A stretch of 64,000 nt of DNA, from contig JBAZUL010000004.1 of NCBI GenBank assembly GCA_041661405.1, positions 15,309-79,308 of the forward strand. The letters are read 5' to 3'. Below the pieces are notes generated by a model that was not told the DNA's origin, ran no database searches, and saw only the letters and a program-made list of their open reading frames with translations. The stretch is from Patescibacteria group bacterium. Its GTDB lineage: Bacteria > Patescibacteriota > Patescibacteriia > Patescibacteriales > JBAZCA01. Position numbers and translations under genes: made by a program. Below are positions 6,841 to 59,383 of this stretch, piece after piece (positions within the stretch are counted from its first letter, which is position 1; each line of letters starts with the position of its first letter).

Positions 6841-6897
6841 CACTGACCTGCCTGCCGGTAGGCAGGTTATCACTGAAGACACTGATTTCACTGATTC
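6841..6897. repeat. Word-plus-palindrome module (CACTGA words around core ACCTGCCTGCCGGTAGGCAGGTT)
   Basis: The 23-mer core at 6846-6868 is identical to 59329-59351. CACTGA words occur at 6841, 6871, 6881 and 6891. Confidence 0.85.
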
Positions 6898-14560: not shown

Positions 14561-14764
14561 ATGTATAATTGGTCAGTTAATACAACTGAATTAAAAAAAG
14601 ACAAGAAAAAATATGCTGTTTGGCGCTTGGAGCAAATGGTTAATTTTGGTTTGGGCGGAAAGAAAATCAACCGGGAAGAAATAAAAAAATATTGGAAGAT
14701 ACTTAAAATGGACCATAATAAAAAGCGGTATTTAAAGATGATTTTATGGCCCAAACAATCCTGA
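14561..14764 (+). CDS. Small conserved-looking protein upstream of and overlapping the AbiEii-type gene (candidate antitoxin partner)
   Basis: 67 codons. It overlaps the downstream start by 19 nt. Composition is basic and Trp-rich (WRLEQMVNFGLGGKKI). It lacks the length expected of a canonical AbiEi. Confidence 0.45.
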   Translation: MYNWSVNTTELKKDKKKYAVWRLEQMVNFGLGGKKINREEIKKYWKILKMDHNKKRYLKMILWPKQS

Positions 14765-15405
14765 GCGCTAATCAAGTTAAAGTTTTGGAGGCAATCAGCA
14801 AAGACGCGGAAATTTGCCGAATTTTTTATTTGACCGGCGGAACGGCTTTGGCGGAGTATTATCTGCAACATCGCTTATCCGAAGACCTGGATTTTTTTTC
14901 GGAAAAAGAATTCGATATTATGGCGATAAATGTTTTTTTTGCGAAGAATAGAAAAGCATTGGGAATAAAAAAGATTGATTTTCAAAAAAGCTTTAACCGC
15001 AATTTGATTTTTCTGCATTTAAAAGATGAGATAATTAAAACTGAGTTTACCTATTTTCCTTTTCCGAGGATTGAAAAAAAAGCTAAGATGAATAAGCTGT
15101 TTGTGGACAGCCTCGGAGATATTGCTGTGAATAAATTGTTTACCATATATCAAAAACCGCGTTCCCGGGATTTTATTGATTTATATTTGATAATAAAGAA
15201 AACCGGCTGGAAGATGAATGACTTGATTAAAAAAACAAAAATTAAGTTTGACTGGCATATTGATTATTTGCAATTAGGCAGCCAATTTATATTGGCTAAA
15301 GAAGTTAAAGATTATCCGCGGATGATCTTTAAACTTGAAAATAAAAAGTGGCAAAATTTTTTTATTAATGAAGCTAAAGTTTTCAGCGGAAAGATTATTG
15401 ATTAG
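14746..15405 (+). CDS. Nucleotidyltransferase, AbiEii/AbiGii toxin family (DUF1814-like)
   Basis: FYLTGGTALAEYYLQHRLSEDLDFF matches the family's N-terminal NTase motif (GG...DLDF). 219 aa. Confidence 0.7.
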   Translation: MAQTILSANQVKVLEAISKDAEICRIFYLTGGTALAEYYLQHRLSEDLDFFSEKEFDIMAINVFFAKNRKALGIKKIDFQKSFNRNLIFLHLKDEIIKTEFTYFPFPRIEKKAKMNKLFVDSLGDIAVNKLFTIYQKPRSRDFIDLYLIIKKTGWKMNDLIKKTKIKFDWHIDYLQLGSQFILAKEVKDYPRMIFKLENKKWQNFFINEAKVFSGKIID

Positions 15406-15550: not shown

Positions 15551-16102
15551 ATGATCCTCCGTATTAATACAATAAAAAACAATTCCACCGAAATTGAAAT
15601 CGGATTGCGCGACAAGGCGGGGAAGTGGATTGTAAAAAAATATGTTAAGGCGGACCGCAAACAGGCGGAGAAGCTCCTGCCCTTGATTGAGAAGGTTGTG
15701 GCTGGCGCAGGCGGAAAGAAGGGCAAGACGGATCTAAAACAGAAGTTTAAAGTTAAAAGTATCCCGTCTCAATCTCGGCGAGCCGAGGCGGAAAAGTTAA
15801 AAGTTTTTGATTTTATTGAATCCATTGAAGTCGTGAATCAGGGCGGGACATTCACCTCTCTGCGCATCGGCGTAGCGACCGCGAACGCGCTGGGGTATGC
15901 GCTAAATGTTCCAGTTGTTGGAGTTAGTGAATTTGAAAAAGTGGGTATAAAGTCCAGGCCGGATGATGCGCATTGTGAAAAGTTCAAAGTTACCTTGCCT
16001 GCCGACAGGCAGGAAAGTCCAAAGTCCAAAGTTAATTTTGATATCGTCGCGCCGGAATACGACAAAGAACCGAATATTACGCTCAAAGTTCATAACCCGT
16101 AA
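15551..16102 (+). CDS. tsaB: TsaB-like (t6A biosynthesis, YeaZ family) mini-protein carrying two repeat-derived inserts
   Basis: NQGGTFTSLRIGVATANALGYALNVPVVGV matches the TsaB GPGSFTGLRIG...P..GV core. The N-terminus MILRINT resembles the family start. Confidence 0.55.
   Translation: MILRINTIKNNSTEIEIGLRDKAGKWIVKKYVKADRKQAEKLLPLIEKVVAGAGGKKGKTDLKQKFKVKSIPSQSRRAEAEKLKVFDFIESIEVVNQGGTFTSLRIGVATANALGYALNVPVVGVSEFEKVGIKSRPDDAHCEKFKVTLPADRQESPKSKVNFDIVAPEYDKEPNITLKVHNP
15737..15808 (+). repeat. In-frame repeat module A inside tsaB-like CDS
   Basis: The palindromic core ATCCCGTCTCAATCTCGGCGAGCCGAGGCGGA (15761-15792) is flanked by a perfect 12-nt direct repeat AAAGTTAAAAGT (15749-15760 and 15793-15804). 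The core recurs at 21719-21754. Confidence 0.85.
15977..16034 (+). repeat. In-frame repeat module B inside tsaB-like CDS
   Basis: The core TGCCTGCCGACAGGCA (about 15996-16013) is a variant of the 6846/59329 core. It is flanked by AAAGTTCAAAGTT / AAAGTCCAAAGTCCAAAGTT words, and the direct repeat CAAAGTTA occurs at 15985 and 16027. Confidence 0.8.
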
Positions 16103-22952: not shown

Positions 22953-24851
22953 ATGACCTCAAAAGAAATACGCCAAAAATACCTGGATTTTTTTAAAGCC
23001 CGGGAGCATGCCATAATTCCTTCGGCTTCCATTATGCCGGATAATGATCCGACAACGCTTTTCACGAGCTCGGGCATGCAGCCTCTTGTGCCATACCTTC
23101 TCGGCGAAAAGCACCCGGAAGGCAAAAGGCTCGCCAACTCGCAAAAATCATTCCGGGCCGAAGATATTGAAGAGGTCGGCGACAACCGGCATACGACTTT
23201 TTTTGAAATGCTCGGCAACTGGTCTTTGGGCGACTATTTTAAAAAAGAGCAGTTAAGATGGTATTTTACTTTTATTACGGAGGAACTCGGGATTGACCCT
23301 AGCCGCCTTTACTCAACCGTATTCCGCGGCAATAAGGAAATCGGCATTGATAAGGACAGCGAAGCGGTCGGAATCTGGAAAGAACTTTTTAAAGAAAAAG
23401 GCATTGACGCTAAAGACGTTGATTTTGCCGAGCGGGACGGGATGCGAGCGGGGAGGATTTTTTATTATGACGAGCGGAAAAACTGGTGGTCAAGATCGGG
23501 AATCCCGGCCAACATGCCGGTCGGCGAACCGGGCGGGCCGGACTCAGAACTGTTTTACGACCTTGGCGCGGATTTAGGCCGCCACGAAAATTCCCAATGG
23601 AAAGATGAACCTTGCCACGTAAATTGCGATTGCGGCCGGTTTATTGAAATCGGCAACAGCGTGTTTATGGAATTCAAAAGGACTGAGAACGGCTTTGAAA
23701 AACTCGCCCAGCAGAACGTTGATTTCGGCGGCGGGCTGGAGCGGACGACCATGGTTGTCCAGAATCTTGACAATATTTTTGAAACTGACCTTTTTAGTAA
23801 TATCCTTAATAAAATCAGCGAGCTCTCAGGCGGAAAAAAATATCGGGAGCATATGAAAGAATTTGAAGTGATTGCCGAGCATCTGCGAGCCGCTACCTTT
23901 ATTATCGGCGACGACAAAGGCGTTGGCCCGGGGAATACCGGCCAGGGTTATATCGTTAGGAGGCTTATAAGAAGAGCGATTCGCTACGGCCGGCTCTTAG
24001 GCATTAGCGAAGAATCATGGACCAAAGAAATCGCCAAGATTGTCGCCCATGATTATGGCGAAGCTTACCCGGAACTCCGACGGAACATTGATTTTGTTAT
24101 TGGCCAGTTAAAGGAAGAAGAAGATAAGTTTAGCAGGACCCTTGAGAAAGGATTAAAAATTTTTGAAGAAAGATTTAGAGAAATAGGGGAATATGAAACC
24201 CCTCCGGCAAATAACATGATTAGCGGTGAAGAGGCGTTTAATTTGTATCAGACTTATGGCTTTCCGATTGAGATGACCCGGGAGCTGGCGGCGGAACACG
24301 GCCTGAAAATTGACGAGCAAGGCTATAAGAAGGAAGCGGAAAAACACCAGGCTCTTTCCCGCACCGCTTCAGCCGGAATGTTTAAAGGCGGTTTGGCTGA
24401 CGCAAGCGAGGAAACAAAAAAACTCCATACAGCAGCTCATCTCCTTCTCGCGGCCCTGCGAAAAGTCTTAGGCGATCATGTTACGCAAAAGGGCAGTAAT
24501 ATAACGAGCGAAAGGATGCGCTTTGATTTTTCCCATCCGGAAAAGATGACTAAAGAGCAAATTAACGAAGTGGAAAAATTAGTAAACAGCGCTATTGAAA
24601 AAAAGCTTCCGGTGGCTTCTGAAGAAATTCCTCTTGAAGATGCAAAGAAAAAAGGCGCCATGGGTGTTTTTGAATCAAAGTACGGGGAAAAGGTAAAAGT
24701 TTACAAGGTTGGCGAAGGAAATAACGTTTTTTCTTATGAAATCTGCGGCGGTCCGCACGCGGAAAATACCGGCGAACTCGGGCATTTTAAGATAACCAAA
24801 GAAGAAAGCTCCAGCTCCGGTGTTCGGAGAATTAAAGCGGTTTTGGAGTAA
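22953..24851 (+). CDS. alaS: Alanine--tRNA ligase, short form ending after the editing domain
   Basis: MTSKEIRQKYLDFFKAREH...DPTTLFTSSGMQ, then HTAAHLL and CGGPH editing-domain motifs. At 632 aa there is no C-Ala/DHHA1-like tail. Confidence 0.9.
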   Translation: MTSKEIRQKYLDFFKAREHAIIPSASIMPDNDPTTLFTSSGMQPLVPYLLGEKHPEGKRLANSQKSFRAEDIEEVGDNRHTTFFEMLGNWSLGDYFKKEQLRWYFTFITEELGIDPSRLYSTVFRGNKEIGIDKDSEAVGIWKELFKEKGIDAKDVDFAERDGMRAGRIFYYDERKNWWSRSGIPANMPVGEPGGPDSELFYDLGADLGRHENSQWKDEPCHVNCDCGRFIEIGNSVFMEFKRTENGFEKLAQQNVDFGGGLERTTMVVQNLDNIFETDLFSNILNKISELSGGKKYREHMKEFEVIAEHLRAATFIIGDDKGVGPGNTGQGYIVRRLIRRAIRYGRLLGISEESWTKEIAKIVAHDYGEAYPELRRNIDFVIGQLKEEEDKFSRTLEKGLKIFEERFREIGEYETPPANNMISGEEAFNLYQTYGFPIEMTRELAAEHGLKIDEQGYKKEAEKHQALSRTASAGMFKGGLADASEETKKLHTAAHLLLAALRKVLGDHVTQKGSNITSERMRFDFSHPEKMTKEQINEVEKLVNSAIEKKLPVASEEIPLEDAKKKGAMGVFESKYGEKVKVYKVGEGNNVFSYEICGGPHAENTGELGHFKITKEESSSSGVRRIKAVLE

Positions 24852-24864
24852 TAGAGGAAAGGTG

Positions 24865-24893
24865 TTGACAGGTTCTAAGTTTTTCTATATAAT
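24865..24893 (+). promoter_or_regulatory. Consensus sigma70-type promoter upstream of infA operon
   Basis: TTGACA (24865-24870), 17-nt spacer, TATAAT (24888-24893). Confidence 0.65.
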
Positions 24894-24931
24894 TATCGTG
24901 CAATCAAAAAACGTAATTTAAACTGAATTTT

Positions 24932-24964
24932 GTCCCGAGCTCTCGGGACTGAGTTTTTGCGTTT
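24932..24964 (+). terminator. Terminator-like hairpin plus U-run, located between the promoter and infA
   Basis: GTCCCGAG CT CTCGGGAC (24932-24949), followed by TGAGTTTTTGCGTTT. Confidence 0.6.
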
Positions 24965-24975
24965 CCCCAGCATTA

Positions 24976-25212
24976 ATGTCTGACGAAAACAAACCATTGG
25001 ATTCAAAGGAATTTATAGAGATGAGAGGTGAAGTGGTCGAGGCCATGCCTTCGGCCACTTTTAAAGTTATATTGGAAAACGGCCATGAAATAATGGCTTA
25101 CCTGTCCGGCAGGATGAGAATGCATAAAATCAGGCTTCTTCCTGGCGACCGGGTTAAGGTTCAGATCAGTCCTTATGACCTTACCAAAGGAAGAATCACT
25201 TACCGGCTCTGA
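24976..25212 (+). CDS. infA: Translation initiation factor IF-1
   Basis: 78 aa with an S1-like fold sequence ([47 protein letters not shown]). Confidence 0.95.
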
Positions 25213-25306
25213 TGAGCATTAGATCGGAAATAGTTTTATAAAATTCATTAGTAAAACATTTAAAGAAATCCGTGACATTGTCTTGTTAAAAGCGGAATTA
25301 AAATAT

Positions 25307-25420
25307 ATGAAAGTGAGGTCTTCGGTAAAAATTGTATGCAAAGATTGCAAGATTGTCCGGCGCAAAGGCCGGCTTTGGGTAACCTGCAAAAATCCGAAGC
25401 ATAAGCAGAGGCAGGGATAG
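25307..25420 (+). CDS. rpmJ: Ribosomal protein L36 (absent from the ORF track)
   Basis: Manual translation gives [37 protein letters not shown] followed by TAG. It lies between infA and rpsM as in the canonical operon. Confidence 0.9.
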
Positions 25421-25506
25421 TGATTAGTTAATTAGGAAATTAGTTAATTAGTTAATTAGGAAATTTATCTATTCCCAAATTAACCGATTAACTAATCAAC
25501 CAATCC
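25421..25506 (+). repeat. TTAGTTAATTAGG word hairpin directly after the rpmJ stop
   Basis: GATTAGTTAATTAGGAAATTAGTTAATTAGTTAATTAGG opposes AATTAACCGATTAACTAATCAACC. Same word family as 28163 and 43991. Confidence 0.8.
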
Positions 25507-25899
25507 ATGGCATTAAGAATAGCGGGGGTTACGCTCCCTAACGAAAAAAGAATAGAAATCGCTTTGACCTATATTTTTGGCATTGGGAAAAAAAAATCCA
25601 ATGATATTTTAACGGCGGCCAAAGTAAATCCTGACACGAGGGTTAAAGATATAAACGAAGAAGACGCCAATCGGGTTCGTGAAATTGTTGAAAAGAATAA
25701 CAAGGTTGAAGGGGAGTTAAAACGGGACATCATAAGCAATATTAAAAGGCTTAAAGAAATAGGCAGTTACCGGGGTAGCCGCCATATCAAAGGACTGCCC
25801 TCAAGAGGGCAACACACCAAAACCAATACCCGGACCGTCCGCGGCAACATAAGAAAAACCATGGGATCGGGAAGAAAGCCGGCCGGACAAAAAACATAA
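25507..25899 (+). CDS. rpsM: Ribosomal protein S13
   Basis: [11 protein letters not shown]...[20 protein letters not shown]. Confidence 0.95.
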
Positions 25900-26018
25900 A
25901 TCAATCTTCAATTTTTAAATCTTCAATCTGCAACTATTGAATTTGTGATTCACTTGACTGATTAAAAATACTGAATTTTAGATAATTGAAGATTGAAGAT
26001 TGAAAAATTGAATAAATT
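25900..26018 (+). repeat. TCTTCAAT / ATTGAAGA word hairpin directly after the rpsM stop
   Basis: It begins TAAATCAATCTTCAATTT, nearly the same as TAAATCAATCTACAATTT at 45287. The right arm is AATTGAAGATTGAAGATTGA. Confidence 0.8.
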
Positions 26019-26609
26019 ATGACTGAAGAAAAAAATATAAAAACCGAAGATAAAAACGCAGGAGAAGCGGCTGAAGAGTTAACTTCCGCGGTCGCTAATG
26101 ATTCCGCGCCTTTGTCTGATCCGGAAGAAGAAAAAGAAAGCCGCCGGCCCATGAGCGGCCTTGTTGAACTGCCTGACAGCGTGAAAGAGAAGCTGGAAAA
26201 AAGAAAAGAGAAGGGGCCGAGCCGGTCAAAGAAAAAGAAAGGCAAGAAAAAAGACCGGAGGGTTCCGGCGGGCAAAGCTTTTATCAAATCCAGCTATAAC
26301 AATACGATTGTAACTTTGACCGATTTGGGAGGTAATGTAATTTCCTGGGCTTCGGCTGGAATTGCCGGATTCAAGGGACCGAAAAAAGCCACCCCTTACG
26401 CCGCGCAGATTATTACCCGCATTGCCTGCACGAAAGCGAAAGAGGATTACGGTTTGAAAGAAGTGAGCGTGTTTGTCCGGGGAGTGGGCATCGGCCGCGA
26501 CGCCGCGGTTCGGGCTTTGAACGCCAACGGACTGTTAATAACTTCCATTAAGGATATTACGCCCATCCCGCATAACGGATGCAGGCCGAAGAAGCCAAGA
26601 AGAGTGTAA
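26019..26609 (+). CDS. rpsK: Ribosomal protein S11 with about 65-aa acidic/basic N-terminal extension
   Basis: The conserved core starts at [30 protein letters not shown]. An internal ATG at 26151 is an alternative start. Confidence 0.85.
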
Positions 26610-26615
26610 AAAATG

Positions 26616-26682
26616 AGTTAAAAGTTCAAAGTGTAATGTTAAAAGTTGCGATTCCTTAACTTTCAACTTTGAACTTTTAACT
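26616..26682 (+). repeat. Perfect 17-bp AAAGTTCAAAGT word hairpin between rpsK and rpsD
   Basis: AGTTAAAAGTTCAAAGT (26616-26632) is the exact reverse complement of ACTTTGAACTTTTAACT (26666-26682). The same words occur in rsmH and tsaB. Confidence 0.9.
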
Positions 26683-26696
26683 TGAGCGAAGCGATT

Positions 26697-27329
26697 ATGG
26701 CCAGAAATTTAGATCCAAAATGTAAACAGTGCCGGAGGGCCGGCGAAAAATTGTTTTTAAAAGGCGAACGTTGCGGTACGCCGCGTTGCGGTATCGTAAA
26801 GAGGAATTTTCCTCCCGGACCCCATAGCGCCAAAGGCCGTCCGCCGCGGGTGAGTGAATACGGAATTCAGCTTAAAGAGAAACAGAAAGCCAGAAAAACG
26901 TACCATCTCTTAGAAAAGCAGTTTGTCTTAACTTTTGAAAAAGCCGGAAAAGAAAAGGGCGACAAAGGAAAAAATTTCATAAAATTGCTTGAGACCCGGA
27001 TGGATAACGCGGTTTACCGGATGGGATTCGCCCCTTCAAGGGATTTGTCCCGCCAGCTTGTAAACCATGGCCACTTTACCGTTAACGGCAAGAAAGTTAA
27101 CATTGCTTCATTTAATCTTAAATCCGGCGATACGGTTAAGGTAAAAGAGTCATCCAGACGCCAAAAGTATTTTCGCGAGCTTCAGGAAAAGAAAGCCGAT
27201 GGGAATCTCCCGAGCTGGCTTAATGTTGACCGGAAAACGCTGGAAGCCAAAGTCGTTTCCGTGCCGTCAGACGATGATATTCCGGGAAACATTAACACGG
27301 CCATGATCGTGGAATTTTATTCAAGATAG
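26697..27329 (+). CDS. rpsD: Ribosomal protein S4
   Basis: MARNLDPKCKQCRRAGEKLFLKGERC. The ATG at 26697 is preferred over the TTG at 26682, which lies inside the hairpin. Confidence 0.9.
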   Translation: MARNLDPKCKQCRRAGEKLFLKGERCGTPRCGIVKRNFPPGPHSAKGRPPRVSEYGIQLKEKQKARKTYHLLEKQFVLTFEKAGKEKGDKGKNFIKLLETRMDNAVYRMGFAPSRDLSRQLVNHGHFTVNGKKVNIASFNLKSGDTVKVKESSRRQKYFRELQEKKADGNLPSWLNVDRKTLEAKVVSVPSDDDIPGNINTAMIVEFYSR

Positions 27330-27346
27330 TAATTCTAAATAACACT

Positions 27347-28162
27347 ATGGAAACCATAGCTTTACCCCAGAACGTGGAATTTAACAAAGGCGCCGGACCC
27401 CATGAATCTCTGGCGTCCATTTATCCCTGCTACCCAGGCTACGGAATTACTCTCGGCAATTCGCTTCGCCGGGTGCTTCTTTCCAGTCTGCCGGGAGCGG
27501 CTGTAATCGGTGTAAAAATAAAAGGAGCGGACCATGAATTCATGTCGCTTCCGCACGTCAAAGAAGATGTTCTGGAAATAATTTTGAATTTAAAAAAATT
27601 GAGACTGAAAGTTTTTTCCGACGAACCAATAATACTTAAACTTAGCGCTCATGGCGAGAAAAAAGTAAAAGCCGGGGATATCGCCAAATCCAGCCAGATT
27701 GAGATAATTAACCCGGAGCTTGTTATCGCCGGAATCACCGACATGGCCGGCAATCTGGAGATGGAAATTCACGTCGCCCAGGGCAAAGGCTATGAGCCGG
27801 TTGAAGCCAGGGAAAAGAAAAATTCTGAAATCGGCTATATTGAGATAGATTCCATTTTTACGCCGGTGCTCAAGGTCGGAATTGACATTGAAAACATCCG
27901 CGTCGGCAAGATGACTAACTGGGAAAAGCTTAAACTGGACATAAAAACCGACGGGACCATGGAACCCGAAGAAGCTTTTGAAAAAGCGGCTAAAATATTG
28001 ATTGAACAGTTTAAAGCTTTAGTCGGAAAAGAAAAAGCGACGGACGAAGCCGGGGAAGCGAAAGAAGTTTTGGAAAGCGAGGCCGGCGACGGCGACGCGT
28101 CCGAGGCTGAAGAAGGAGTTAAAGAATCCGGAAAGAAGCGGGGAAGGCCGAAGAAAGGATAA
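27347..28162 (+). CDS. rpoA: RNA polymerase alpha subunit, N-terminal domain only, with acidic tail and terminal AT-hook-like KKRGRPKKG
   Basis: Alpha-NTD motifs are present (GYGITLGNSLRRVLLSSLPGAAV). The protein is 271 aa. No helix-hairpin-helix alpha-CTD sequence follows about residue 225. Confidence 0.85.
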   Translation: METIALPQNVEFNKGAGPHESLASIYPCYPGYGITLGNSLRRVLLSSLPGAAVIGVKIKGADHEFMSLPHVKEDVLEIILNLKKLRLKVFSDEPIILKLSAHGEKKVKAGDIAKSSQIEIINPELVIAGITDMAGNLEMEIHVAQGKGYEPVEAREKKNSEIGYIEIDSIFTPVLKVGIDIENIRVGKMTNWEKLKLDIKTDGTMEPEEAFEKAAKILIEQFKALVGKEKATDEAGEAKEVLESEAGDGDASEAEEGVKESGKKRGRPKKG

Positions 28163-28218
28163 TTAGTTGATTAGTTAATTGGTTAATTAGGATTGCGTTA
28201 ATAACTAATTAACCAAGG
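28163..28218 (+). repeat. TTAGTTGATTAG word hairpin directly after the rpoA stop
   Basis: TTAGTTGATTAGTTAATTGGTTAATTAGGA differs at 1 of 30 nt from 43991-44020. The right arm is CTAATTAACCAA. Confidence 0.85.
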
Positions 28219-28246
28219 AGCCAGTCCGCAATTTAAATAAATACGT

Positions 28247-28597
28247 ATGAGACACAGGAACAAAAATAAAATACTGGACAGAAAAAAAGCGCCACGGGAG
28301 CTCATGCTCCGCAATCTGGCTTCAAGTATTTTGATTTACGAAAAAGTAAAAACCACCAAAGCCAAGGCCCAGGCAGTAAGGCCGCTTCTTGAGCGGGTGA
28401 TTACTTACGCCAGAAAAAATGACCTGGCTTCTAAAAAAAGGATTATGTCAATTCTGCCGCAAAAAATGGCGGCTAAAAAGGTCATTGAGGTTATCGGCGG
28501 CCGCTATAAGGACCAAAATGGCGGCTACTGCCGGATCGTGAAGCTCGGAGAGAGACAGGGAGACGGCGCCGAAGTGGTGCAGATTGAATTGGTATAA
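28247..28597 (+). CDS. rplQ: Ribosomal protein L17
   Basis: MRHRNKNKILDRKKAPRELMLRNLA, 116 aa, in the canonical position after rpoA. Confidence 0.9.
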   Translation: MRHRNKNKILDRKKAPRELMLRNLASSILIYEKVKTTKAKAQAVRPLLERVITYARKNDLASKKRIMSILPQKMAAKKVIEVIGGRYKDQNGGYCRIVKLGERQGDGAEVVQIELV

Positions 28598-28637
28598 CCG
28601 GAAACCTGGAATAAGAAATATAAAAATAAGAAATATT

Positions 28638-28997
28638 ATGTCGGTTAAAATAGAAAGAAAACATTATAAAATTGACGCGGAAGGCAAGTCTGTCGGCCGG
28701 CTGGCGACCCAAATCGCCCTGGTTTTGCGCGGAAAAAATAAGCCGGAATACACCCCGAACATTGACGCCGGGGATATTGTTGAAGTGGGCAACATCGCCA
28801 GATTGAAGTTTACCGGCAAGAAACTGGAGCAAAAAAAATATTTCCGCTATTCAGGCTACCCGGGCGGCTTAAAAACCGTAAAAATGAGGGACGTAATGCA
28901 AAATAAACCGGCTGAAATTTTAGTCCGGGCGGTGCGGGAAATGCTTCCTCCTAACCGGCTCCGGAACGGCATGATGAAGAGACTGATAATCAGATAA
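28638..28997 (+). CDS. rplM: Ribosomal protein L13
   Basis: The ATG at 28638 gives MSVKIERKHYKIDAEGKSVGRLATQIALVLRGKNKPEYTP. The ORF-track start at 28584 overlaps rplQ and the 16-nt tandem AATAAGAAATAT words. Confidence 0.9.
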   Translation: MSVKIERKHYKIDAEGKSVGRLATQIALVLRGKNKPEYTPNIDAGDIVEVGNIARLKFTGKKLEQKKYFRYSGYPGGLKTVKMRDVMQNKPAEILVRAVREMLPPNRLRNGMMKRLIIR

Positions 28998-29000
28998 GCG

Positions 29001-29060
29001 TTTAGGGTTTAGCGTATAGAGTACAAGAACTAAACTCTGTACGCTGAACCCTATACCCTA
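29001..29060 (+). repeat. 18-bp hairpin between rplM and rpsI with plus-strand-specific G-U pairs
   Basis: GGGTTTAGCGTATAGAGT (29005-29022) pairs with ACTCTGTACGCTGAACCC (29034-29051). The two non-Watson-Crick positions are U-G on the plus-strand RNA and would be A-C on the other strand. Confidence 0.85.
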
Positions 29061-29069
29061 TAAAACATT

Positions 29070-29525
29070 ATGGCAGAAACAAAAAATACAACTAAAAGCG
29101 CCGTAGCGGAAGAAAAAGCTAAAAACGACATTTTTAAAGGCCGCTATATCGCGGCGATCGGCCGGCGAAAAAGAGCCATCGCCCAGACCCGGCTCTACGA
29201 AAAAGGCAAGGGCGTTATCATTATAAACGGAATGAAAGCGACCGATTATTTTCCAGCCGGACTCATGATGACCGTCAACCAGGCCATAAAATTAACCGGC
29301 CGCAACAAAGATTTTGATTTTTCAATCATGGTTTCCGGCGGAGGCAAATCCGGTCAGTCCGAAGCGGTCCGCCTCGGAATTTCCCGGGCTCTCATAAAAT
29401 TTGATCCGGAGCTTCGCCCGGCTTTAAAAGCCAAGGGCTATCTGACCCGCGACTCCAGGGAAGTGGAACGGAAAAAACCGGGTTTGAAAAAAGCCAGAAG
29501 GGCTCCCCAGTGGTCAAAGAGATAG
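29070..29525 (+). CDS. rpsI: Ribosomal protein S9
   Basis: The C-terminus is RDSREVERKKPGLKKARRAPQWSKR, with GGGKSGQSEAVRLGISRAL in the core. Confidence 0.95.
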   Translation: MAETKNTTKSAVAEEKAKNDIFKGRYIAAIGRRKRAIAQTRLYEKGKGVIIINGMKATDYFPAGLMMTVNQAIKLTGRNKDFDFSIMVSGGGKSGQSEAVRLGISRALIKFDPELRPALKAKGYLTRDSREVERKKPGLKKARRAPQWSKR

Positions 29526-29562
29526 TCTCTTTGCGCTATTCTTCATATATCTTTGAGATATC

Positions 29563-29595
29563 AAAAATCCCGCCTCTTCGGGGTTTTTGCTTTTT
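29563..29595 (+). terminator. Weak rho-independent terminator after rpsI
   Basis: An A-run, then CCCG (29569-29572) pairing with CGGG (29579-29582), then TTTTTGCTTTTT. Confidence 0.45.
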
Positions 29596-29651
29596 GGCGG
29601 CTTGTAGTATAATGTATTAAGGCTTTGCCAGCCTTTTATTTTTTTATTATT

Positions 29652-31118
29652 ATGCCGGGAAAAGTCGCCAATATCGCCAAAAACACCTCTTACTTTACTG
29701 TCGCCCTTATCTTGCAGAAGGTGATATCTTTCAGTTATTTCATAATCCTGGCGCGCTACCTGGGGCCGGAAGACCTTGGGAAATATTATTTTGCCATTTC
29801 TTTTACCACGATTTTTTCCATAATCATTGACCTTGGTTTTGCCGGGGTTTTAATCCGGGAGGTGGCCAAAGACAACGCTAAAGCGGAAAAATTTTTAGGA
29901 AGCATTCTGGCCATGAAAATCCCTTTGACAGCCGTATCTTTCGCGGCGGCGGCGATTTTGATAAACGCGCTCGGCTATCCGGACATAACTAAATACCTCG
30001 TTTACCTGTCAATGCTTTGCATGGCCATGGACTCGTTCACTTTATCATTTTTTTCCACCATCCGCGGATTCCATAACCTCGCGTACGAAAGCGCCGGGTC
30101 AGTTATTTTTCAGTTGATCGTAATCGGCGCTGGAGCGGCACTCGTTAAAGCCGGCGCCGGATTAAAATGGATGTTTCTGCCGTTAATCGCCGCGAGCGCC
30201 TTTAACTTTTTTTATTCCATGTATCTTGTCGCGATAAAGTGGAAGATAAAAATCAGGCCGGACTGGGATTTTTCGCGCATAAAATATATCGTCGGCATTT
30301 CCATTGCCTTTACTTTGTACGGCGTCTTAAACCGGGTTTATACTTTTCTTGATTCAGTGCTTTTATCGCTTTTGTCGGGCGACCGGGCGGTAGGAATTTA
30401 TCAGGTGGCCTTTAAGATGATTATCGCCCTGCAGTTTCTGCCAATGGCTTTCGCCGCTTCTCTTTACCCGGCGCTTTCTCTTTATTGGATAAAAAATAAA
30501 TCGCAGTTATCCGTCACTTTTGAGCGGGCGATGAATTATTTAATAATCATTTCCGTACCGATAAGCGCGGGCATTATCATGATTGCCGATAAGATTGTTT
30601 TGATTTTTAAATCCGGTTATTCGGAAGCCATATTGCCTTTGCAAATTACTATCGCCCAACTGCTCTTTACTTTCGTAAACTTTCCGATCGGTTCTTTGCT
30701 GAATGCCTGCGACCGGCAAAAGCAAAATACCTATATTATGGGAGTTGTCGCCTTGACGAGCGCTGTTTTAAACCTGATTTTAATTCCCCGAATCGGGGTA
30801 ATCGGCGCGAGTATCGCCTCGTCGGTTTCGGGGGTCATTCAAGTTTCGCTGGGAATGATCATGGTAAAAAAAATTATAGATTACCGGCTCAGGAAGAATC
30901 TAATAATTCTCGCTAAGTCGCTTTTCTCGGCCGGAATGATGGCCTTGGCAGTATATTATTTTAAGGTCGACCTGAATATATTTATCGTTTCAGCGCTGGG
31001 CGCGGCGGTTTATTTCGCCGTTCTCTTCCTGCTCGGCGGATTAAAGAAAGAAGATGTTATGAGCATACTGGAGTCGTTTAGAAAAAAAGCGGAGATTGAA
31101 AGTGAAAATCATTTATAA
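29652..31118 (+). CDS. Polysaccharide/oligosaccharide flippase (MOP/Wzx family)
   Basis: About 14 TM segments. The N-terminus KNTSYFTVALILQKVISFSYFIILARYLGPEDLGKY is typical of polysaccharide biosynthesis (PST) proteins. The ATG at 29652 is preferred over the TTG at 29625. Confidence 0.7.
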   Translation: MPGKVANIAKNTSYFTVALILQKVISFSYFIILARYLGPEDLGKYYFAISFTTIFSIIIDLGFAGVLIREVAKDNAKAEKFLGSILAMKIPLTAVSFAAAAILINALGYPDITKYLVYLSMLCMAMDSFTLSFFSTIRGFHNLAYESAGSVIFQLIVIGAGAALVKAGAGLKWMFLPLIAASAFNFFYSMYLVAIKWKIKIRPDWDFSRIKYIVGISIAFTLYGVLNRVYTFLDSVLLSLLSGDRAVGIYQVAFKMIIALQFLPMAFAASLYPALSLYWIKNKSQLSVTFERAMNYLIIISVPISAGIIMIADKIVLIFKSGYSEAILPLQITIAQLLFTFVNFPIGSLLNACDRQKQNTYIMGVVALTSAVLNLILIPRIGVIGASIASSVSGVIQVSLGMIMVKKIIDYRLRKNLIILAKSLFSAGMMALAVYYFKVDLNIFIVSALGAAVYFAVLFLLGGLKKEDVMSILESFRKKAEIESENHL

Positions 31119-40482: not shown

Positions 40483-41292
40483 ATGCGGGAGGGAAACAAT
40501 CAAATCATAATCTACAATAGTGAAGACGGAGAAACTAAGATTGAGGTCAAGATGGAGAATGAGACAGTTTGGCTTAGCCAGAAACAGATGGCCGAGCTTT
40601 TTGATAAAGATGTCAAAACTGTCAATGAGCACATAAAAAATGTGTTTTTTGAGGGAGAATTAGCGGAAAATTCAGTTATCCGGAAATTCCGGATAACTGC
40701 TTCGGACGGGAAAAGTTATGAAACGATGTTTTATAATCTTGACGTTATTATATCTGTCGGTTACCGCGTTAAATCGCATCGCGGCACGCAATTCCGCATC
40801 TGGGCGACGCAAAAATTGCGGGAGTATATAATTAAAGGGTTTGCTATGGACGACGAGCGATTAGCCGGTGGCGGAATAAAGAAGACTTATTTTAATGAAT
40901 GGGAAGAACGGATCAGGAAAATCCGTACTTCGGAAGCTAATTTTTACCAGAAAGTCAGGGACGTATTCGCGACCAGCGTTGACTATAATCCGAAGCTAGA
41001 TTACGCCAGGCGATTCTTCGCGACAGTGCAGAATAAATTCCATTACGCGATTACTGGTTTGACGGCGGCCGAAATTGTCAGCAATCGGATTGATAGCCAA
41101 AAAGAAAATATGGGATTAACGAACTGGAAAGGGGAAATTATTGTCCGCGAGCAGGCGGAAATCGCCAAGAATTACCTTAAAGAGCTGGAACTGAAAAGAC
41201 TGAATTTATTGGTTGAGCAATTTTTATCTTTTGCTGAATTGCAAAGCGTGGAGCAGAGAGTGATGTATATGAAAGACTGGAAAATAAAATAG
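40483..41292 (+). CDS. RhuM-family protein, apparently C-terminally truncated
   Basis: WLSQKQMAELFDKDVKTVNEHIKNVF...YNLDVIISVGYRVKSHRGTQFRIWAT is typical of RhuM. The ORF stops right after MYMKDWKIK, where family members (from memory) continue for roughly 50-60 more residues. Confidence 0.65.
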   Translation: MREGNNQIIIYNSEDGETKIEVKMENETVWLSQKQMAELFDKDVKTVNEHIKNVFFEGELAENSVIRKFRITASDGKSYETMFYNLDVIISVGYRVKSHRGTQFRIWATQKLREYIIKGFAMDDERLAGGGIKKTYFNEWEERIRKIRTSEANFYQKVRDVFATSVDYNPKLDYARRFFATVQNKFHYAITGLTAAEIVSNRIDSQKENMGLTNWKGEIIVREQAEIAKNYLKELELKRLNLLVEQFLSFAELQSVEQRVMYMKDWKIK

Positions 41293-42926: not shown

Positions 42927-43994
42927 ATGCCTATAAAAATAAAACCAATCACTGACGAAAAATCCTGGCAAGATTTTGAGAAGATTCGCGCGCCGCATAC
43001 TTTTCTGCAAACCTGGGAATGGGGAGCCGCGCAGGAGCTTCTTGGCAATAAAATTTTTCGGCTGGGGATTTACGGCAACGGCAAAATTCAGGGAACCGCT
43101 TTTGCTTATAAAATCAGCGCCCGGCGGGGATCGTTTTTGTTCTGTCCGCACGGCCCGTCAATTGACTGGAAATGCTCTGAATTTCCGCAAAATACGAAAA
43201 AAACAAAATACGAAAATTTTGATAATTTTCGGGCGCTGGCCGGTTATTTGCGCGAACTGGGAAAAAGCGAGAGAGTGGGATTCGTTCGGATTAGTTCGCT
43301 GGCTCCGGATAATGATGACATGAAAAAACTTTTTCGGGATTCCGGTTTTATTTCGGCGCCGGTTCATATGATGCATCCGGAAAACGCCTGGATCCTTGAT
43401 ATTGACCGGCCGGAAGAAGAAATAATCGGCGCCATGAAAAAAAGAACCCGCTATTCAATCCGCAAAGCGGAAAAAGACGGCATAAAAATTACGACATCAG
43501 CCAATCCGGCCGACGTGAGGCTATTTTATGAAATGTATCTTGAAACCGCCAGACGGCAGAAATTCGTCCCGTTTTCGGAGAGCTATATCCGGCGCGAATT
43601 TGAAATATTCCGGAAAAATAATAAAGCCCTGATGTTTTTTGCTTATTTTAAAGGGAAACTCATTTCCGCGGCTGTAATTATTTTTTCTTCTAAAATGGCT
43701 TTTTATCATCACGGCGCTTCAATCCGGTCGGATAATTCCGGCCTCACGGCCTCGGAATTACTGCAATGGAACGTCATCCTTGAAGCCCGGCACCGGGGAC
43801 TCGCTAGCTATAATTTTTGGGGCATCGCGCCGGAGAATTGCCCGAAACATCCTTGGCACGGTTTGACAACTTTTAAAAAAGGTTTTGGAGGACATCCGGA
43901 AAATTATCTGCACGCCCAAGACCTTGTAATTTCGCCGAAATATTGGTTAAATTACATAGTGGAAACGGTAAGACGGTGGAAGAGGGGATATTAG
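42927..43994 (+). CDS. FemAB/FemX-family aminoacyl-tRNA-dependent peptidyl/aminoacyl transferase
   Basis: FLQTWEWGAAQE, MKKRTRYSIRKAEKDGI, YHHGAS, LQWNVILEARHRG..YNFWGI and TTFKKGFGG motifs. The ATG at 42927 is preferred over the GTG at 42888. Confidence 0.8.
   Translation: MPIKIKPITDEKSWQDFEKIRAPHTFLQTWEWGAAQELLGNKIFRLGIYGNGKIQGTAFAYKISARRGSFLFCPHGPSIDWKCSEFPQNTKKTKYENFDNFRALAGYLRELGKSERVGFVRISSLAPDNDDMKKLFRDSGFISAPVHMMHPENAWILDIDRPEEEIIGAMKKRTRYSIRKAEKDGIKITTSANPADVRLFYEMYLETARRQKFVPFSESYIRREFEIFRKNNKALMFFAYFKGKLISAAVIIFSSKMAFYHHGASIRSDNSGLTASELLQWNVILEARHRGLASYNFWGIAPENCPKHPWHGLTTFKKGFGGHPENYLHAQDLVISPKYWLNYIVETVRRWKRGY
43188..43218 (+). repeat. 16-nt-period AAAATACGAAAA word repeat translated inside femX-like CDS
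   Basis: CAAAATACGAAAAAAACAAAATACGAAAATT differs at 1 of 31 nt from the intergenic 51560-51590. Here it encodes QNTKKTKYENF. Confidence 0.9.
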
Positions 43995-44074
43995 TTGATT
44001 AGTTGATTGGTTAATTAGGAAAAATATATTAACCAACCAACTAATTAACTAATCAACCAATTAACCAATTAACT
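43991..44074 (+). repeat. TTAGTTGATTAG word hairpin spanning the femX-like stop to the next ATG
   Basis: The left arm TTAGTTGATTAGTTGATTGGTTAATTAGG contains the TAG stop (43992-43994). The right arm is TTAACCAACCAACTAATTAACTAATCAACC. Confidence 0.85.
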
Positions 44075-45289
44075 ATGTTTGAGCGAACAAAAGATCTAAA
44101 ACTCTCGGTAATCAAGCAGATGGAATTAAAGGCGGCGAAAATCCCCGACGTGATATCACTCGCTCAGGGCGTGCCGAGCTTTGACACTCCGCAGTTCATA
44201 AAAAGGCGGGTGGAAAAAGAATTGAAAAATCAGGTAATTTCAAAATATTCGCTCTCGCCCGGGATGATGGAACTGCGGGAGCTTTTTGAGGCGCATCTGG
44301 CTAAGGAAAACATGCATTACGACTGGGAAACGGAGATTCTTGTTACGGTCGGAGCGATTGAAGCGCTAACCGCGACTATCCTGGCGCTTACCATGCCCGG
44401 CGATGAAATTCTCGTTCCTGAGCCGGCTTATACTTCCTATCGCGAAGTGATTACCCTTGCCGGATGCAATCCGGTTTACGCGCCGTTAAACGAAGAAAAA
44501 GACTGGGGGCTTGAGATGGCTGAAATTGAAAATGCCATCACCCCGAAAACCAAAGCCATAATCTATTCCAACCCTTCCAATCCGACCGGGACGATTTTCT
44601 CCAAATCTCAACTTTTAGAACTCGTGGAATTCGTAAAAAAACACGATATTTTCCTTATTACCGACGAGCTTTACAAGGATTTTGTTTTTGATCCTTCCTA
44701 CCTTGAAAACGGCCGGCTCTTTTCGGTCGCCGAGATTCCTGAGATCCGGGAAAAGGTAATCCGAATTTTTAGCCTCTCAAAATTATTCGCCATGACTGGC
44801 TGGCGGGTCGGCTTTCTCCATAGCGACGCCAAAAACGTCAAGGAGATTTTAAAAGTCCATGACTGCCTTGTTACTTGCGCGCCGGTAATTTCCCAGGTCG
44901 CGGCTATGGGCGCACTTGAGGGTTGCGAGGAAAATATTACTAATTTTAACGTTGAATTCCAGAAACGTCGGGATCTGATCTGCGCGCGACTTGATAAGCT
45001 CGCCAAATATTTCAGTTACGCCAAGCCTCAGGGAGCCTATTATATTTTCCCGAAAATTAAACCTGAGGCTTTTCCAAAAATGAAAAAGGCCGTAAATTCA
45101 AAAGGCGCGGAAGTGATTGATTCATGGGAATTTTGCGTTGATCTCCTGGAAAAAGCCAAAGTCGGCACTGTTCCCGGGTTTGCTTTTGGGCCATCAGGCG
45201 AAGGGCATTTCCGAATGAATTTTGCCAAGAGCGAGGAAAACATCAATGACGCTTTTGACCGGATAGAAAAATACTGTGAGAATCAATAA
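44075..45289 (+). CDS. Class I/II PLP aminotransferase (aspartate/aromatic-type)
   Basis: LAQGVPSFDTP, NPSNPTG, and SLSKLFAMTGWRVGF (SxSK lysine). Confidence 0.8.
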   Translation: MFERTKDLKLSVIKQMELKAAKIPDVISLAQGVPSFDTPQFIKRRVEKELKNQVISKYSLSPGMMELRELFEAHLAKENMHYDWETEILVTVGAIEALTATILALTMPGDEILVPEPAYTSYREVITLAGCNPVYAPLNEEKDWGLEMAEIENAITPKTKAIIYSNPSNPTGTIFSKSQLLELVEFVKKHDIFLITDELYKDFVFDPSYLENGRLFSVAEIPEIREKVIRIFSLSKLFAMTGWRVGFLHSDAKNVKEILKVHDCLVTCAPVISQVAAMGALEGCEENITNFNVEFQKRRDLICARLDKLAKYFSYAKPQGAYYIFPKIKPEAFPKMKKAVNSKGAEVIDSWEFCVDLLEKAKVGTVPGFAFGPSGEGHFRMNFAKSEENINDAFDRIEKYCENQ

Positions 45290-45350
45290 ATCAATCTACA
45301 ATTTGCAACGGCTTATTAATTGATAATTGTAGATTGAAGATTGACTTATT
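45290..45350 (+). repeat. TCAATCTACAATT word hairpin directly after the stop
   Basis: TCAATCTACAATT pairs perfectly with AATTGTAGATTGA. The right side continues AGATTGA as in 25990-26010. Confidence 0.85.
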
Positions 45351-45356
45351 GATCCA

Positions 45357-45431
45357 AGGGCTTGTAGTACAGTGGTAGTACGCCGCATTCGCATTGCGGA
45401 GACGGGAGTCCGATTCTCCCCAAGTCCACCA
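45357..45431 (+). tRNA. tRNA-Ala(CGC)-like gene with encoded CCA and non-canonical features
   Basis: Hand-folded cloverleaf: D stem GTAC/GTAC with GG in the loop; anticodon arm CCGCA-TTCGCAT-TGCGG (anticodon CGC); T arm GGGAG-TCCGATT-CTCCC; 3' end CAAGTCC-A-CCA. The acceptor 5' strand reads GGGCCTTG. That gives either a C3-U70 mismatch, or G3-U70 with a bulged C. The T loop has C at position 55. Confidence 0.7.
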
Positions 45432-54299: not shown

Positions 54300-54302
54300 A
54301 AA

Positions 54303-54388
54303 TAAGTTATAAAGTTATAAAGTAAAAAGTTTAAAGTATTATATTTATACTTTTAGCCTTATACTTTATAACTTTAAACTTTATAACT
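54303..54388. repeat. GTTATAAAG / CTTTATAAC word hairpin in the clpB leader
   Basis: AGTTATAAAGTTATAAAGTAAAAAGTTTAAAGTAT opposes ATACTTTATAACTTTAAACTTTATAACT. Confidence 0.8.
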
Positions 54389-54401
54389 ATAAAAACATTA
54401 T

Positions 54402-54428
54402 TTAGCACTCTAATACTTTGACTGCTAA
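54402..54428. promoter_or_regulatory. CIRCE (HrcA operator) upstream of clpB
   Basis: TTAGCACTC-TAATACTTT-GACTGCTAA compared with the consensus TTAGCACTC-N9-GAGTGCTAA shows 1 mismatch. It lies immediately downstream of the -10 element. Confidence 0.7.
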
Positions 54429-59276: not shown

Positions 59277-59286
59277 ATTTAGAAAA

Positions 59287-59375
59287 ATGAATTATGATTT
59301 ATGAATTATACAAATTTTTAAACTCATTACCTGCCTGCCGGTAGGCAGGTTCATAATTCGCAATTCATTATTCAA
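59287..59375. repeat. ATGAATTAT word hairpin around core ACCTGCCTGCCGGTAGGCAGGTT
   Basis: The core at 59329-59351 is identical to 6846-6868. The left words have a 14-nt period (ATGAATTATGATTT ATGAATTAT). The right words are complementary (CATAATTCGCAATTCAT). Confidence 0.85.
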
Positions 59376-59383
59376 GTAAAAAC

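Follow-up and report, generated by a model that had tools for sequence, protein, structure and literature searches.

What fills the spaces between the ribosomal-protein (r-protein) genes of a Patescibacteria genome, and does it act through the RNA or arise as a product of the DNA? We address this question for a stretch of 64,000 nucleotides (nt) of contig JBAZUL010000004.1 (Patescibacteria group bacterium, assembly GCA_041661405.1, positions 15,309 to 79,308 of the forward strand), hereafter the window, in which an earlier, sequence-only reading had flagged the gene cluster infA-rpmJ-rpsM-rpsK-rpsD-rpoA-rplQ-rplM-rpsI for long hairpins in five of its spacers. Repeats of 70-120 nt within an essential r-protein operon are unexpected, because Patescibacteria genomes are very small and tightly packed. 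Comparison with related loci shows that these repeats arise and are reshaped at the DNA level, through independent whole-word changes in the hairpin arms, copying of arrays between loci and outright replacement of junctions with flanks that are ~85-94% identical. They appear to form a lineage-specific, fast-evolving class of tandem arrays of A+T-rich words 7 or 8 nt in length; roughly one array in two has an inverted copy nearby and so can fold into a long hairpin. With moderate confidence, we take the spacers to hold slippage-prone, copied intergenic repeats that are transcribed within the operon and are tolerated, or mildly useful, through their self-folding. We do not think that the individual hairpins each have a conserved RNA function of their own.

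The spacers of the cluster are dominated by long A+T-rich hairpins with arms made of short tandem words, as the sequence-only reading had described, and the examples that it quoted are present: a perfect 17-bp stem (26616-26632 with 26666-26682), an 18-bp stem (29005-29022 with 29034-29051) with two mismatches that are T-G on the + strand, near-identical copies at distant positions (28163-28192 and 43991-44020, matching at 29/30 nt) and the string TAAATCAATCT.CAATTT at both 25897 and 45287. Its gene names (TsaD-family, FemAB, aminotransferase, WecG and the r-proteins) are upheld by Pfam or by translation. Arms in the window measure 12-38 nt and are 82-100% complementary. When RNA folding energy was compared with that of 200 dinucleotide shuffles per spacer, the five r-protein spacers gave z-scores of -4.0 to -8.9 and 0/200 shuffles folded as well; spacers at 43995, 45290, 54300 (minus strand) and 59277 (minus strand) likewise fold far better than their shuffles. 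The same layout had been claimed for four sites outside the cluster. It recurs behind the FemAB gene (43995) and the aminotransferase gene (45290), but the hairpin behind the tsaB-like gene (16103) is at chance level (z -0.28, with 68/200 shuffles as good), and the one at wecG (55380) has a G+C-rich core and is of another type than the A+T-rich word hairpins.

The census of relatives covered 95 non-redundant related Patescibacteria loci totaling 950 kb, labelled L0xx or L1xx; the genome of the window is Falkowbacteria-like, and the nearest public relatives have RpoA sequences 82-85% identical to that of the window. Hairpins scoring at least 14 occur at 0.71 per kb in intergenic and 0.02 per kb in intragenic DNA, a difference of ~35x. 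Within 699 spacers, 70 hairpins scored 14-18 where dinucleotide shuffles gave 2.2, and the strongest class numbered 31 against 0.15. These counts bear on another explanation, namely that the hairpins arise by chance in A+T-rich spacers of low complexity or through faulty assembly. The spacers of the window are in fact repetitive and only 22-39% G+C, yet the excess over shuffles is ~30-fold to 200-fold, dozens of independent assemblies, produced by different studies, show this architecture too, and an independent record of the region (ENA contig ERZ27249449 k141_527375) is identical to the window across the 6.7 kb compared. We consider this explanation effectively refuted. Strain-level variation of the window was also sought; the sole other record found (L139) is identical to the window.

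The basic unit of these spacers is the array of tandem 7-8-nt words; a hairpin is a frequent, not an obligatory, arrangement of it. We conclude this because periodic arrays dominate, about half of them have an inverted partner, and solitary arrays without a hairpin fill entire spacers in the same way. Among arms of at least 20 nt, 17 are periodic with period 7 and 10 with period 8. Tandem Repeats Finder arrays with periods of 7, 8 and 14-16 dominate intergenic DNA, where period-7 arrays reach ~1 per kb compared with 0.1 per kb inside genes. An inverted partner lies at most 130 nt away from 102/182 arrays, against 48 in a composition-matched control. The 182 arrays represent 163 different consensus units and most hairpins are unique in sequence, with stem G+C of 0.13-0.42 and a median loop of 21 nt. 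Nevertheless, the earlier description of each spacer as holding a different hairpin does not hold, the arrays falling into a few word families shared among loci and genomes: at least five families are found within the window, and families common to many genomes sit there at non-orthologous spacers. A need for stops in all three frames was considered as the cause of periods 7 and 8 and rejected, as the first 30 nt close all frames in 16% of cases and in 14% of shuffles, and no peak of stop trinucleotides is seen at offsets 7, 8, 14 or 16. TIGR or CRISPR-like arrays, raised by literature matches, were also discarded; a spacer-repeat architecture does not fit.

The sequence-only reading had the hairpins start at the stop codon of the upstream gene. 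In co-directional spacers of at most 160 nt, stems begin a median of 6 nt past the stop codon and end a median of 14 nt before the next start, an asymmetry that is not significant (p=0.13), and hairpins cover ~66% of the spacer; they therefore fill spacers rather than being anchored at the stop, and are not specifically stop-codon-anchored. One window hairpin (54302-54394, minus strand) abuts a start codon, lying 2 nt from that of clpB. It has a CIRCE (controlling inverted repeat of chaperone expression) operator on its other side and so belongs to the 5' leader, not behind a stop codon. The stop codon itself forms the first word in 26/136 arrays, for example 'acaTAAcg' followed by CATAACG x5, and the terminal 7-mer of a gene recurs downstream in 28% of cases compared with 22.5% in controls. 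Seeding of arrays by the gene's own terminal heptamer was accordingly set aside as a general origin, since it is true for a minority only.

Turnover of the hairpins is far more rapid than that of the flanking genes. When the window is compared with L060, whose r-proteins are 85-100% identical, only the rpoA-rplQ spacer of the r-protein operon is orthologous and alignable. The window, L060 and L061 each have a hairpin at the rpmJ-rpsM junction, made of three unrelated word sets, and the rplM-rpsI junction, 72 nt long in the window, has 3 nt in L060. At the FemAB-aminotransferase junction, the hairpins of the window, L140 and L143 again have unrelated words. The flanking genes of L140 are 84-94% nt-identical, yet its FemAB-aminotransferase, aminotransferase-tRNA and clpB-leader spacers have all been replaced. 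In a survey of ~60 genomes, the number of occupied junctions in the r-protein operon ranged from 0 to 6 out of 8; some relatives have none, and close relatives show spacers of 3-30 nt at the same junctions. Smaller differences come in whole words and affect single arms: a length difference of 21 nt (three heptamers) separates L076 from L077 and is confined to a single arm, a loss of 19 nt in L040 is likewise restricted to one arm, and L060 differs from L061 by one word. Such independent gain and loss of whole words amounts to replication slippage. Periodic arms shifted by one word remain 71% paired, so word indels do not abolish the hairpin.

Arrays are also copied from place to place. The 28-mer TTAGTTGATTAGTTAATTGGTTAATTAG of family A is exact at 28163, has 1 mismatch at 43991 and 3 mismatches in the 3' arm of the rpmJ-rpsM hairpin (25476-25503, minus strand), where chance would give 0 copies. 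It is found once more, without a mismatch, in the clpB leader of L140, at a place where the window has another word family, and its orthologous copy in L060 differs at two bases. The 28-mer retains the same order of word variants at every occurrence, which implies that arrays have been copied or homogenised between loci; recombination between arrays, or a transposition-type activity, might have done so. In the latter case the spacers could be occupied by non-autonomous mobile elements akin to miniature inverted-repeat transposable elements (MITEs) or repetitive extragenic palindromic (REP) sequences, moved as hairpin DNA by a transposase encoded elsewhere, for instance of the IS200/IS605 type or a REP-associated tyrosine transposase (RAYT), with the words being secondary. 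An identical 28-mer at non-orthologous loci of two genomes, 2-3 copies per family in 64 kb and word families at non-orthologous spacers of many genomes are what such elements would leave. So is the finding of another palindromic element in both orientations within one operon (L012), as is a family-A array (TTAGTTAATTAGTTAATTAGTTAATTGGTTAATTAG) adjoining a minus-strand start codon on a contig classified as viral (IMG/VR UViG_3300047562_002592, L145 6750-6800). However, the copies of a family are partial and share one arm only, the rest of each spacer being different; comparison of filled and empty junctions (rplM-rpsI, 72 vs 3 nt, rpsK-rpsD and rpsD-rpoA) revealed no target-site duplication and no common or defined termini, as terminal inverted repeats of a MITE would provide; and no common head motif (GTAG-like) is present among the hairpins. 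None of the 49 open reading frames (ORFs) of the window matches a transposase family, and the word-unit indels indicate slippage in place. We therefore regard mobile elements of this kind as improbable.

The five hairpins of the cluster are flanked by a perfect consensus promoter upstream of infA and a canonical intrinsic terminator 3' of rpsI (Table 1), the likely start and end of an infA-to-rpsI transcription unit. Hence they are very probably internal to one polycistronic transcript, a conclusion that we infer from this bracketing. No promoter-like site was found within any hairpin spacer of the operon, and internal promoters in the hairpin loops were rejected for want of any. Shine-Dalgarno-like motifs at -20 to -4 precede 4/48 genes of the window, which is below the 13% background, and the upstream regions are A+T-rich. 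A search of the window against Rfam 15 returned tRNA-Ala as its sole match at the gathering threshold. At E<=1 over 24800-29700, it gave just a spurious microRNA match and a weak rimP-leader-like match (29534-29641, 34.9 bits vs a gathering score of 47) that overlaps the rpsI terminator. A terminator-like hairpin at 24932-24949, between the consensus promoter and infA, may be a leader attenuator.

Within such a transcript, the hairpins could be unusual intrinsic terminators or attenuators without a U-tract that set the stoichiometry of the operon's products. Their stems are stable, and the arm order with the A-rich 5' arm first and the T-rich 3' arm second is preferred 67 to 30, the G+C-richer stems showing the same polarity (26 to 7). 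The sequence-only reading had argued that most are not classical terminators, and this stands: a T-run follows 0/5 of the window hairpins and 11-12% of the A+T-rich hairpins across relatives, and the short G+C-rich stem, small loop and U-tract of an intrinsic terminator are not what word hairpins display. A terminator role is improbable given the rarity of T-runs, the long loops (median 21 nt, unlike those of terminators) and the position of rpoA, rpsD and other essential genes downstream of spacers that hold no promoter-like site; the organism uses classical terminators elsewhere in the window, as after rpsI. We judge this possibility highly improbable.

A function at the RNA level had been argued from the two U-G pairs of the rplM-rpsI stem. 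The pairs are there, but they are not general. A hairpin finder that treats all mismatches alike, applied to 101 A+T-rich stems from co-directional spacers of the 95 loci, counted sense-strand G-T and A-C mismatches at 45:45, with a further 123 mismatches of neither kind. Isolated internal mismatches in the same stems are G-T in 23 cases and A-C in 14 (p=0.19). Stems of at least 35% G+C in the same loci served as a positive control and showed the expected bias, 21:8 overall and 11:2 internally (p=0.02). The sequence-only reading had proposed comparing sister genomes for compensatory changes; five orthologous sets, under a strand-symmetric definition that accepts Watson-Crick pairs only, yielded five compensatory pairs, but G-T numbered 22 and A-C 16 (p=0.42). 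An earlier count from RNAalifold, with 16 G-U-preserving changes vs 6 breaks, was circular because its structure came from the very sequences being counted, with G-U pairs permitted, and its bias vanished on the strand-symmetric recount. Sense and antisense folding energies do not differ significantly. The A+T-rich word hairpins are thus shown to carry no sense-strand wobble signature.

These results set limits on the main rival explanation, in which selection maintains the hairpins as intercistronic RNA elements, with any sufficiently stable hairpin serving the purpose, whether for 3'-end protection, as RNase III sites or for translational coupling. In the coupling version, a terminating ribosome would melt the base of the stem and free the next start region in a host without Shine-Dalgarno sites, and sequence turnover would be neutral drift under structure-only selection. 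Several observations speak for it: the placement of the hairpins inside a single operon bracketed by a consensus promoter and a terminator, their long stems (12-31 bp), the closeness of the stem base to stop and start, the shortage of Shine-Dalgarno motifs and the presence of unrelated hairpins at the same junction in three relatives. Some findings, moreover, count against an origin as tolerated DNA repeats. In the window, the highly expressed r-protein operon has more than its share of hairpins (5/8 junctions vs 4/42, p=0.003), and the rpmJ-rpsM junction is occupied in 34% of the clade, compared with 7-18% at other junctions. The presence of a hairpin at a junction is weakly correlated between relatives when called by z-score (odds ratio 4.2, p=0.026), a figure confounded by true terminators and tRNA; ungapped hairpin calls proved too insensitive for this purpose (p=0.37) and were abandoned. 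The 67 to 30 preference for the A-rich arm first also fits selection for the hairpin, and no copying enzyme was found among the ORFs of the window. Finally, paired columns are more conserved than unpaired ones, stems changing more slowly than loops or tails in 4/5 orthologous sets (e.g. 0.03 vs 0.21), and compensatory changes are seen in a few instances, for example from G-C to A-T between L060 and L061. No other result argues as strongly as this slower evolution of the stems for pairing being important at some level.

Against selected RNA elements stand the lack of a sense G-U excess in A+T-rich stems, with more than half of their mismatches being non-wobble while the G+C-richer stems are biased, and the independent, whole-word manner in which the arms change. 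In addition, close relatives make do with spacers of 3-30 nt at the same junctions, some genomes are free of hairpins, solitary arrays that form none fill spacers alike, and one hairpin lies in a 5' leader against the start codon. On balance we regard selection for any stable hairpin as possible but rather unlikely.

We therefore return to slippage-prone, copied repeats as the preferred explanation and to how they might persist. The five hairpins would be transcribed within one polycistronic mRNA and form stems of -19 to -34 kcal/mol, which would place each stop codon spatially near the next start. In a compact operon without Shine-Dalgarno sites, a self-folding insert may be the least harmful way to lengthen a spacer, and it might bring generic benefits such as protection of 3' ends or insulation of the next start region. 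Two bolder possibilities were also entertained, and we hold them, taken together, to be doubtful: either the word-repeat hairpins are, in a sub-lineage of Patescibacteria lacking Shine-Dalgarno sites, a renewable, structure-only device that replaces sequence-specific ribosome-binding sites in coupling or insulating cistrons, slippage and copying generating them and selection keeping those that bridge stop to start, or there is an enzyme that copies arrays of 7-8-nt words between loci.

Table 1. Word-array spacers, hairpins and associated signals in the window (positions from the first nucleotide of the window; z, folding z-score against dinucleotide shuffles)
Feature	Positions	Strand	Description
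Promoter upstream of infA	24865-24893	+	perfect consensus TTGACA-17-TATAAT; 12/12 consensus positions
rpmJ-rpsM spacer	25421-25506	+	8-nt word array (TAGTTAAT / TAGGAAAT) in register with TAG stop; -19.1 kcal/mol, z -4.54
rpmJ-rpsM hairpin arms	25439-25464 and 25471-25496	+	3' arm (25476-25503, minus strand) a 3-mismatch copy of the family-A 28-mer
rpsM-rpsK spacer	25900-26018	+	TCAATCT-type 7-nt words; -27.0 kcal/mol, z -4.03
rpsM-rpsK hairpin arms	25907-25937 and 25982-26012	+	31 nt, 90% complementary
rpsK-rpsD spacer	26610-26696	+	AAAGTT-type 7-nt words; -24.0 kcal/mol, z -4.38
rpsK-rpsD hairpin arms	26616-26642 and 26656-26682	+	contain the perfect 17-bp stem
rpoA-rplQ spacer	28163-28246	+	family-A 28-mer TTAGTTGATTAGTTAATTGGTTAATTAG (8-nt words) at 28163-28190; -21.1 kcal/mol, z -4.08
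rpoA-rplQ stem	28179-28190 with 28205-28216	+	perfect 12 bp
rplQ-rplM spacer	28598-28637	+	direct word repeats (AATAAGAAATAT x2), no hairpin; z -1.36
rplM-rpsI spacer	28998-29069	+	7-nt words TTTAGGG, TTTAGCG, TATAGAG; -33.7 kcal/mol, z -8.86
rplM-rpsI hairpin arms	28997-29022 and 29034-29059	+	two T-G pairs
Intrinsic terminator 3' of rpsI	29562-29589	+	canonical; G+C stem then T-run
FemAB-aminotransferase spacer	43995-44074	+	family-A copy, 1 mismatch vs 28163 copy; z -6.98
FemAB-aminotransferase hairpin arms	43990-44015 and 44028-44053	+	TAG stop of upstream gene inside first word
Aminotransferase to tRNA-Ala spacer	45290-45357	+	TCAATCT-family words; z -4.06
Aminotransferase to tRNA-Ala hairpin arms	45282-45308 and 45327-45353	+	
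tRNA-Ala	45358-45431		Rfam match
clpB 5' leader hairpin	54300-54400	-	AAAGTTAT-family; arms 54302-54339 and 54347-54384; z -3.85
rpmE-prfA spacer	59277-59380	-	GAATTATGA-type words; z -5.93
rpmE-prfA hairpin arms	59282-59305 and 59350-59373	-	enclose G+C-rich palindrome CCTGCCTGCCGGTAGGCAGG (59330-59349)

The coordinates in Table 1 take the start of rpsD as the ATG at 26697, not the TTG at 26682, and that of rplM as the ATG at 28638; the rpsD-rpoA spacer is just 17 nt long. The CIRCE-type heat-shock operator upstream of clpB (TTAGCACTC-N9-GACTGCTAA, 54402-54428, minus strand) is conserved in L140 and L143, yet the sequence from operator to clpB start has been replaced in each genome.

Other palindromes accompany the word arrays. 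Scattered through this A+T-rich genome is a perfect 20-nt palindrome rich in G+C, CCTGCCTGCCGG(Y)AGGCAGG. It lies at window positions 6847-6866, 59330-59349 and, with 3 mismatches, 15994-16013, sometimes inside the loop of a word hairpin. Six related loci also carry it, as do 47 IMG/VR contigs, some with multiple copies and some in G+C-rich contexts; it could be an element similar to REPs or a widespread motif for protein binding or termination. The last ~40 codons of a TsaD-family ORF (15970-16102) run through AAAGTT/AAAGTC words flanking a copy of this palindrome, and the Pfam match of the ORF covers residues 89-130 only; its C-terminal tail may derive from the repeat element, or the ORF may be over-extended. 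The palindromic element found in both orientations within one operon, an arrangement typical of a dispersed mobile palindrome, belongs to another genus. It is distinct and well conserved (ATTAAGTAAAAATTTAATAGC...GCCATTAAATTTTTACTTAAT, 80-97% identical between genomes), with sites at L012 4012-4066 and 4716-4774, at L097 8999-9055, and in L013, L019, L023, L064, L086, L096 and L102. A hairpin upstream of infA (ACCAAAAATTTTGGTAAAG...CTTTGCCAAAATTTTTTGT, L076 440-487) is, unlike the word hairpins, 84-100% identical across many genomes (L005, L006, L022, L056, L066, L077, L117, L118 and others) and may be a genuine terminator or leader structure. Elsewhere in the window, the segment 3546-6146 has ~54% G+C compared with 44% for the whole, ORFs without Pfam match and G-rich, strongly structured spacers. 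An AbiEii-family toxin gene and a RhuM-family gene, both of families that are usually accessory or associated with mobile elements, lie at 14746-15405 and 40483-41292.

The sequence-only reading knew of no description of such an architecture, but intergenic heptamer arrays have already been described in other phyla (PMC4679880, PMC4692102). Direct repeats of the heptamer TAACTGA occupy intergenic DNA in Beggiatoaceae, Cyanobacteria and Bacteroidetes, including the interior of r-protein operons and spacers without a canonical ribosome-binding site, and consist of one heptamer in nearly always direct orientation, with 1 indirect set among 170 (MacGregor 2015, PMC4679880). The arrays studied here resemble them as tandem 7-nt A+T-rich intergenic words that contain a stop codon and often lie a few nt from a start, within r-protein operons and spacers poor in ribosome-binding sites, and the start-proximal family-A arms (TAACTAAT, TAACCAAT) resemble TAACTGA in the same orientation; in both cases, origin and mobility are unexplained. 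They differ in belonging to another phylum and in the variety of their words, which are 7 or 8 nt long, and roughly every second array is part of an inverted pair that forms a hairpin. Heptameric repeats of Nostoc and Xanthomonas show occasional inverted pairs and vary widely between close relatives, and polymerase slippage has been proposed as the origin of long simple-sequence or heptamer arrays (Rehm 2015, PMC4692102). The short tandemly repeated repetitive (STRR) arrays of Nostoc and Calothrix and the GGGAATC arrays of Xanthomonas share with ours an intergenic excess of heptamers, variation in length and sequence at the same junction between close relatives, inverted pairs able to form stem-loops and slippage as origin. 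Those arrays, however, are G-rich (quadruplex-prone) or use a few fixed heptamers, have not been reported as the main content of intra-operon spacers, and pair in inverted fashion only exceptionally, whereas roughly half of ours do. Further sources on such arrays, cited in the same paper, are Mazel 1990 and Mrazek 2007. Like known heptamer arrays, those of the present clade are tandem intergenic units of ~7 nt that change in copy number by whole units between close relatives; their 163 consensus units among 182 arrays, 102 of them with an inverted partner, are far from a few fixed units repeated directly.

REP sequences are G+C-rich, measure ~35 nt and vary little within a genome, with a GTAG-type head and a cognate RAYT; their stem-loops are often transcribed in operons and protect upstream mRNA from 3' exonucleases. 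The sequence-only reading had named them as the nearest analogue, which is reasonable insofar as REPs, bacterial interspersed mosaic elements (BIMEs) and REP doublets (REPINs) are also extragenic, imperfectly palindromic, dispersed in multiple copies, often transcribed in operons and frequently arranged as inverted pairs. The defining features of REPs, many near-identical copies with a conserved head, are absent from the 64 kb of the window: the word arrays are A+T-rich, periodic at 7-8 nt and mostly unique, and no RAYT was found there. Of the systems compared, RNase III sites and stabilising stem-loops call for an intercistronic stem of at least ~20 bp within one transcript, and with arms of 12-38 nt between promoter and terminator the hairpins agree with this. 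The intercistronic RNase III sites of phage T7 have conserved sequence and structure, a characteristic internal loop and demonstrated cleavage. As long, non-terminating stem-loops between consecutive cistrons, the word hairpins are similar and might work in the same way; unlike the T7 sites, they are conserved in neither sequence nor structure. No literature description was found of such arrays in Patescibacteria, or of the inverted layout. Heptamer arrays themselves are known, and what is new here is the dominance, in the intra-operon spacers of a reduced genome, of many different 7-8-nt words, half of whose arrays are inverted pairs.

If the hairpins are mostly by-products of events at the DNA level, slippage and copying would be outpacing genome streamlining in these bacteria. 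The arrays could then provide strain-level markers, and they would caution against taking each stable intergenic hairpin for a regulator. If selection maintains them, they would show how operons can be organised in bacteria without Shine-Dalgarno-based initiation. Either way, the finding ties this phylum to the poorly understood heptamer-repeat phenomenon of cyanobacteria, Beggiatoaceae, Bacteroidetes and Xanthomonas.

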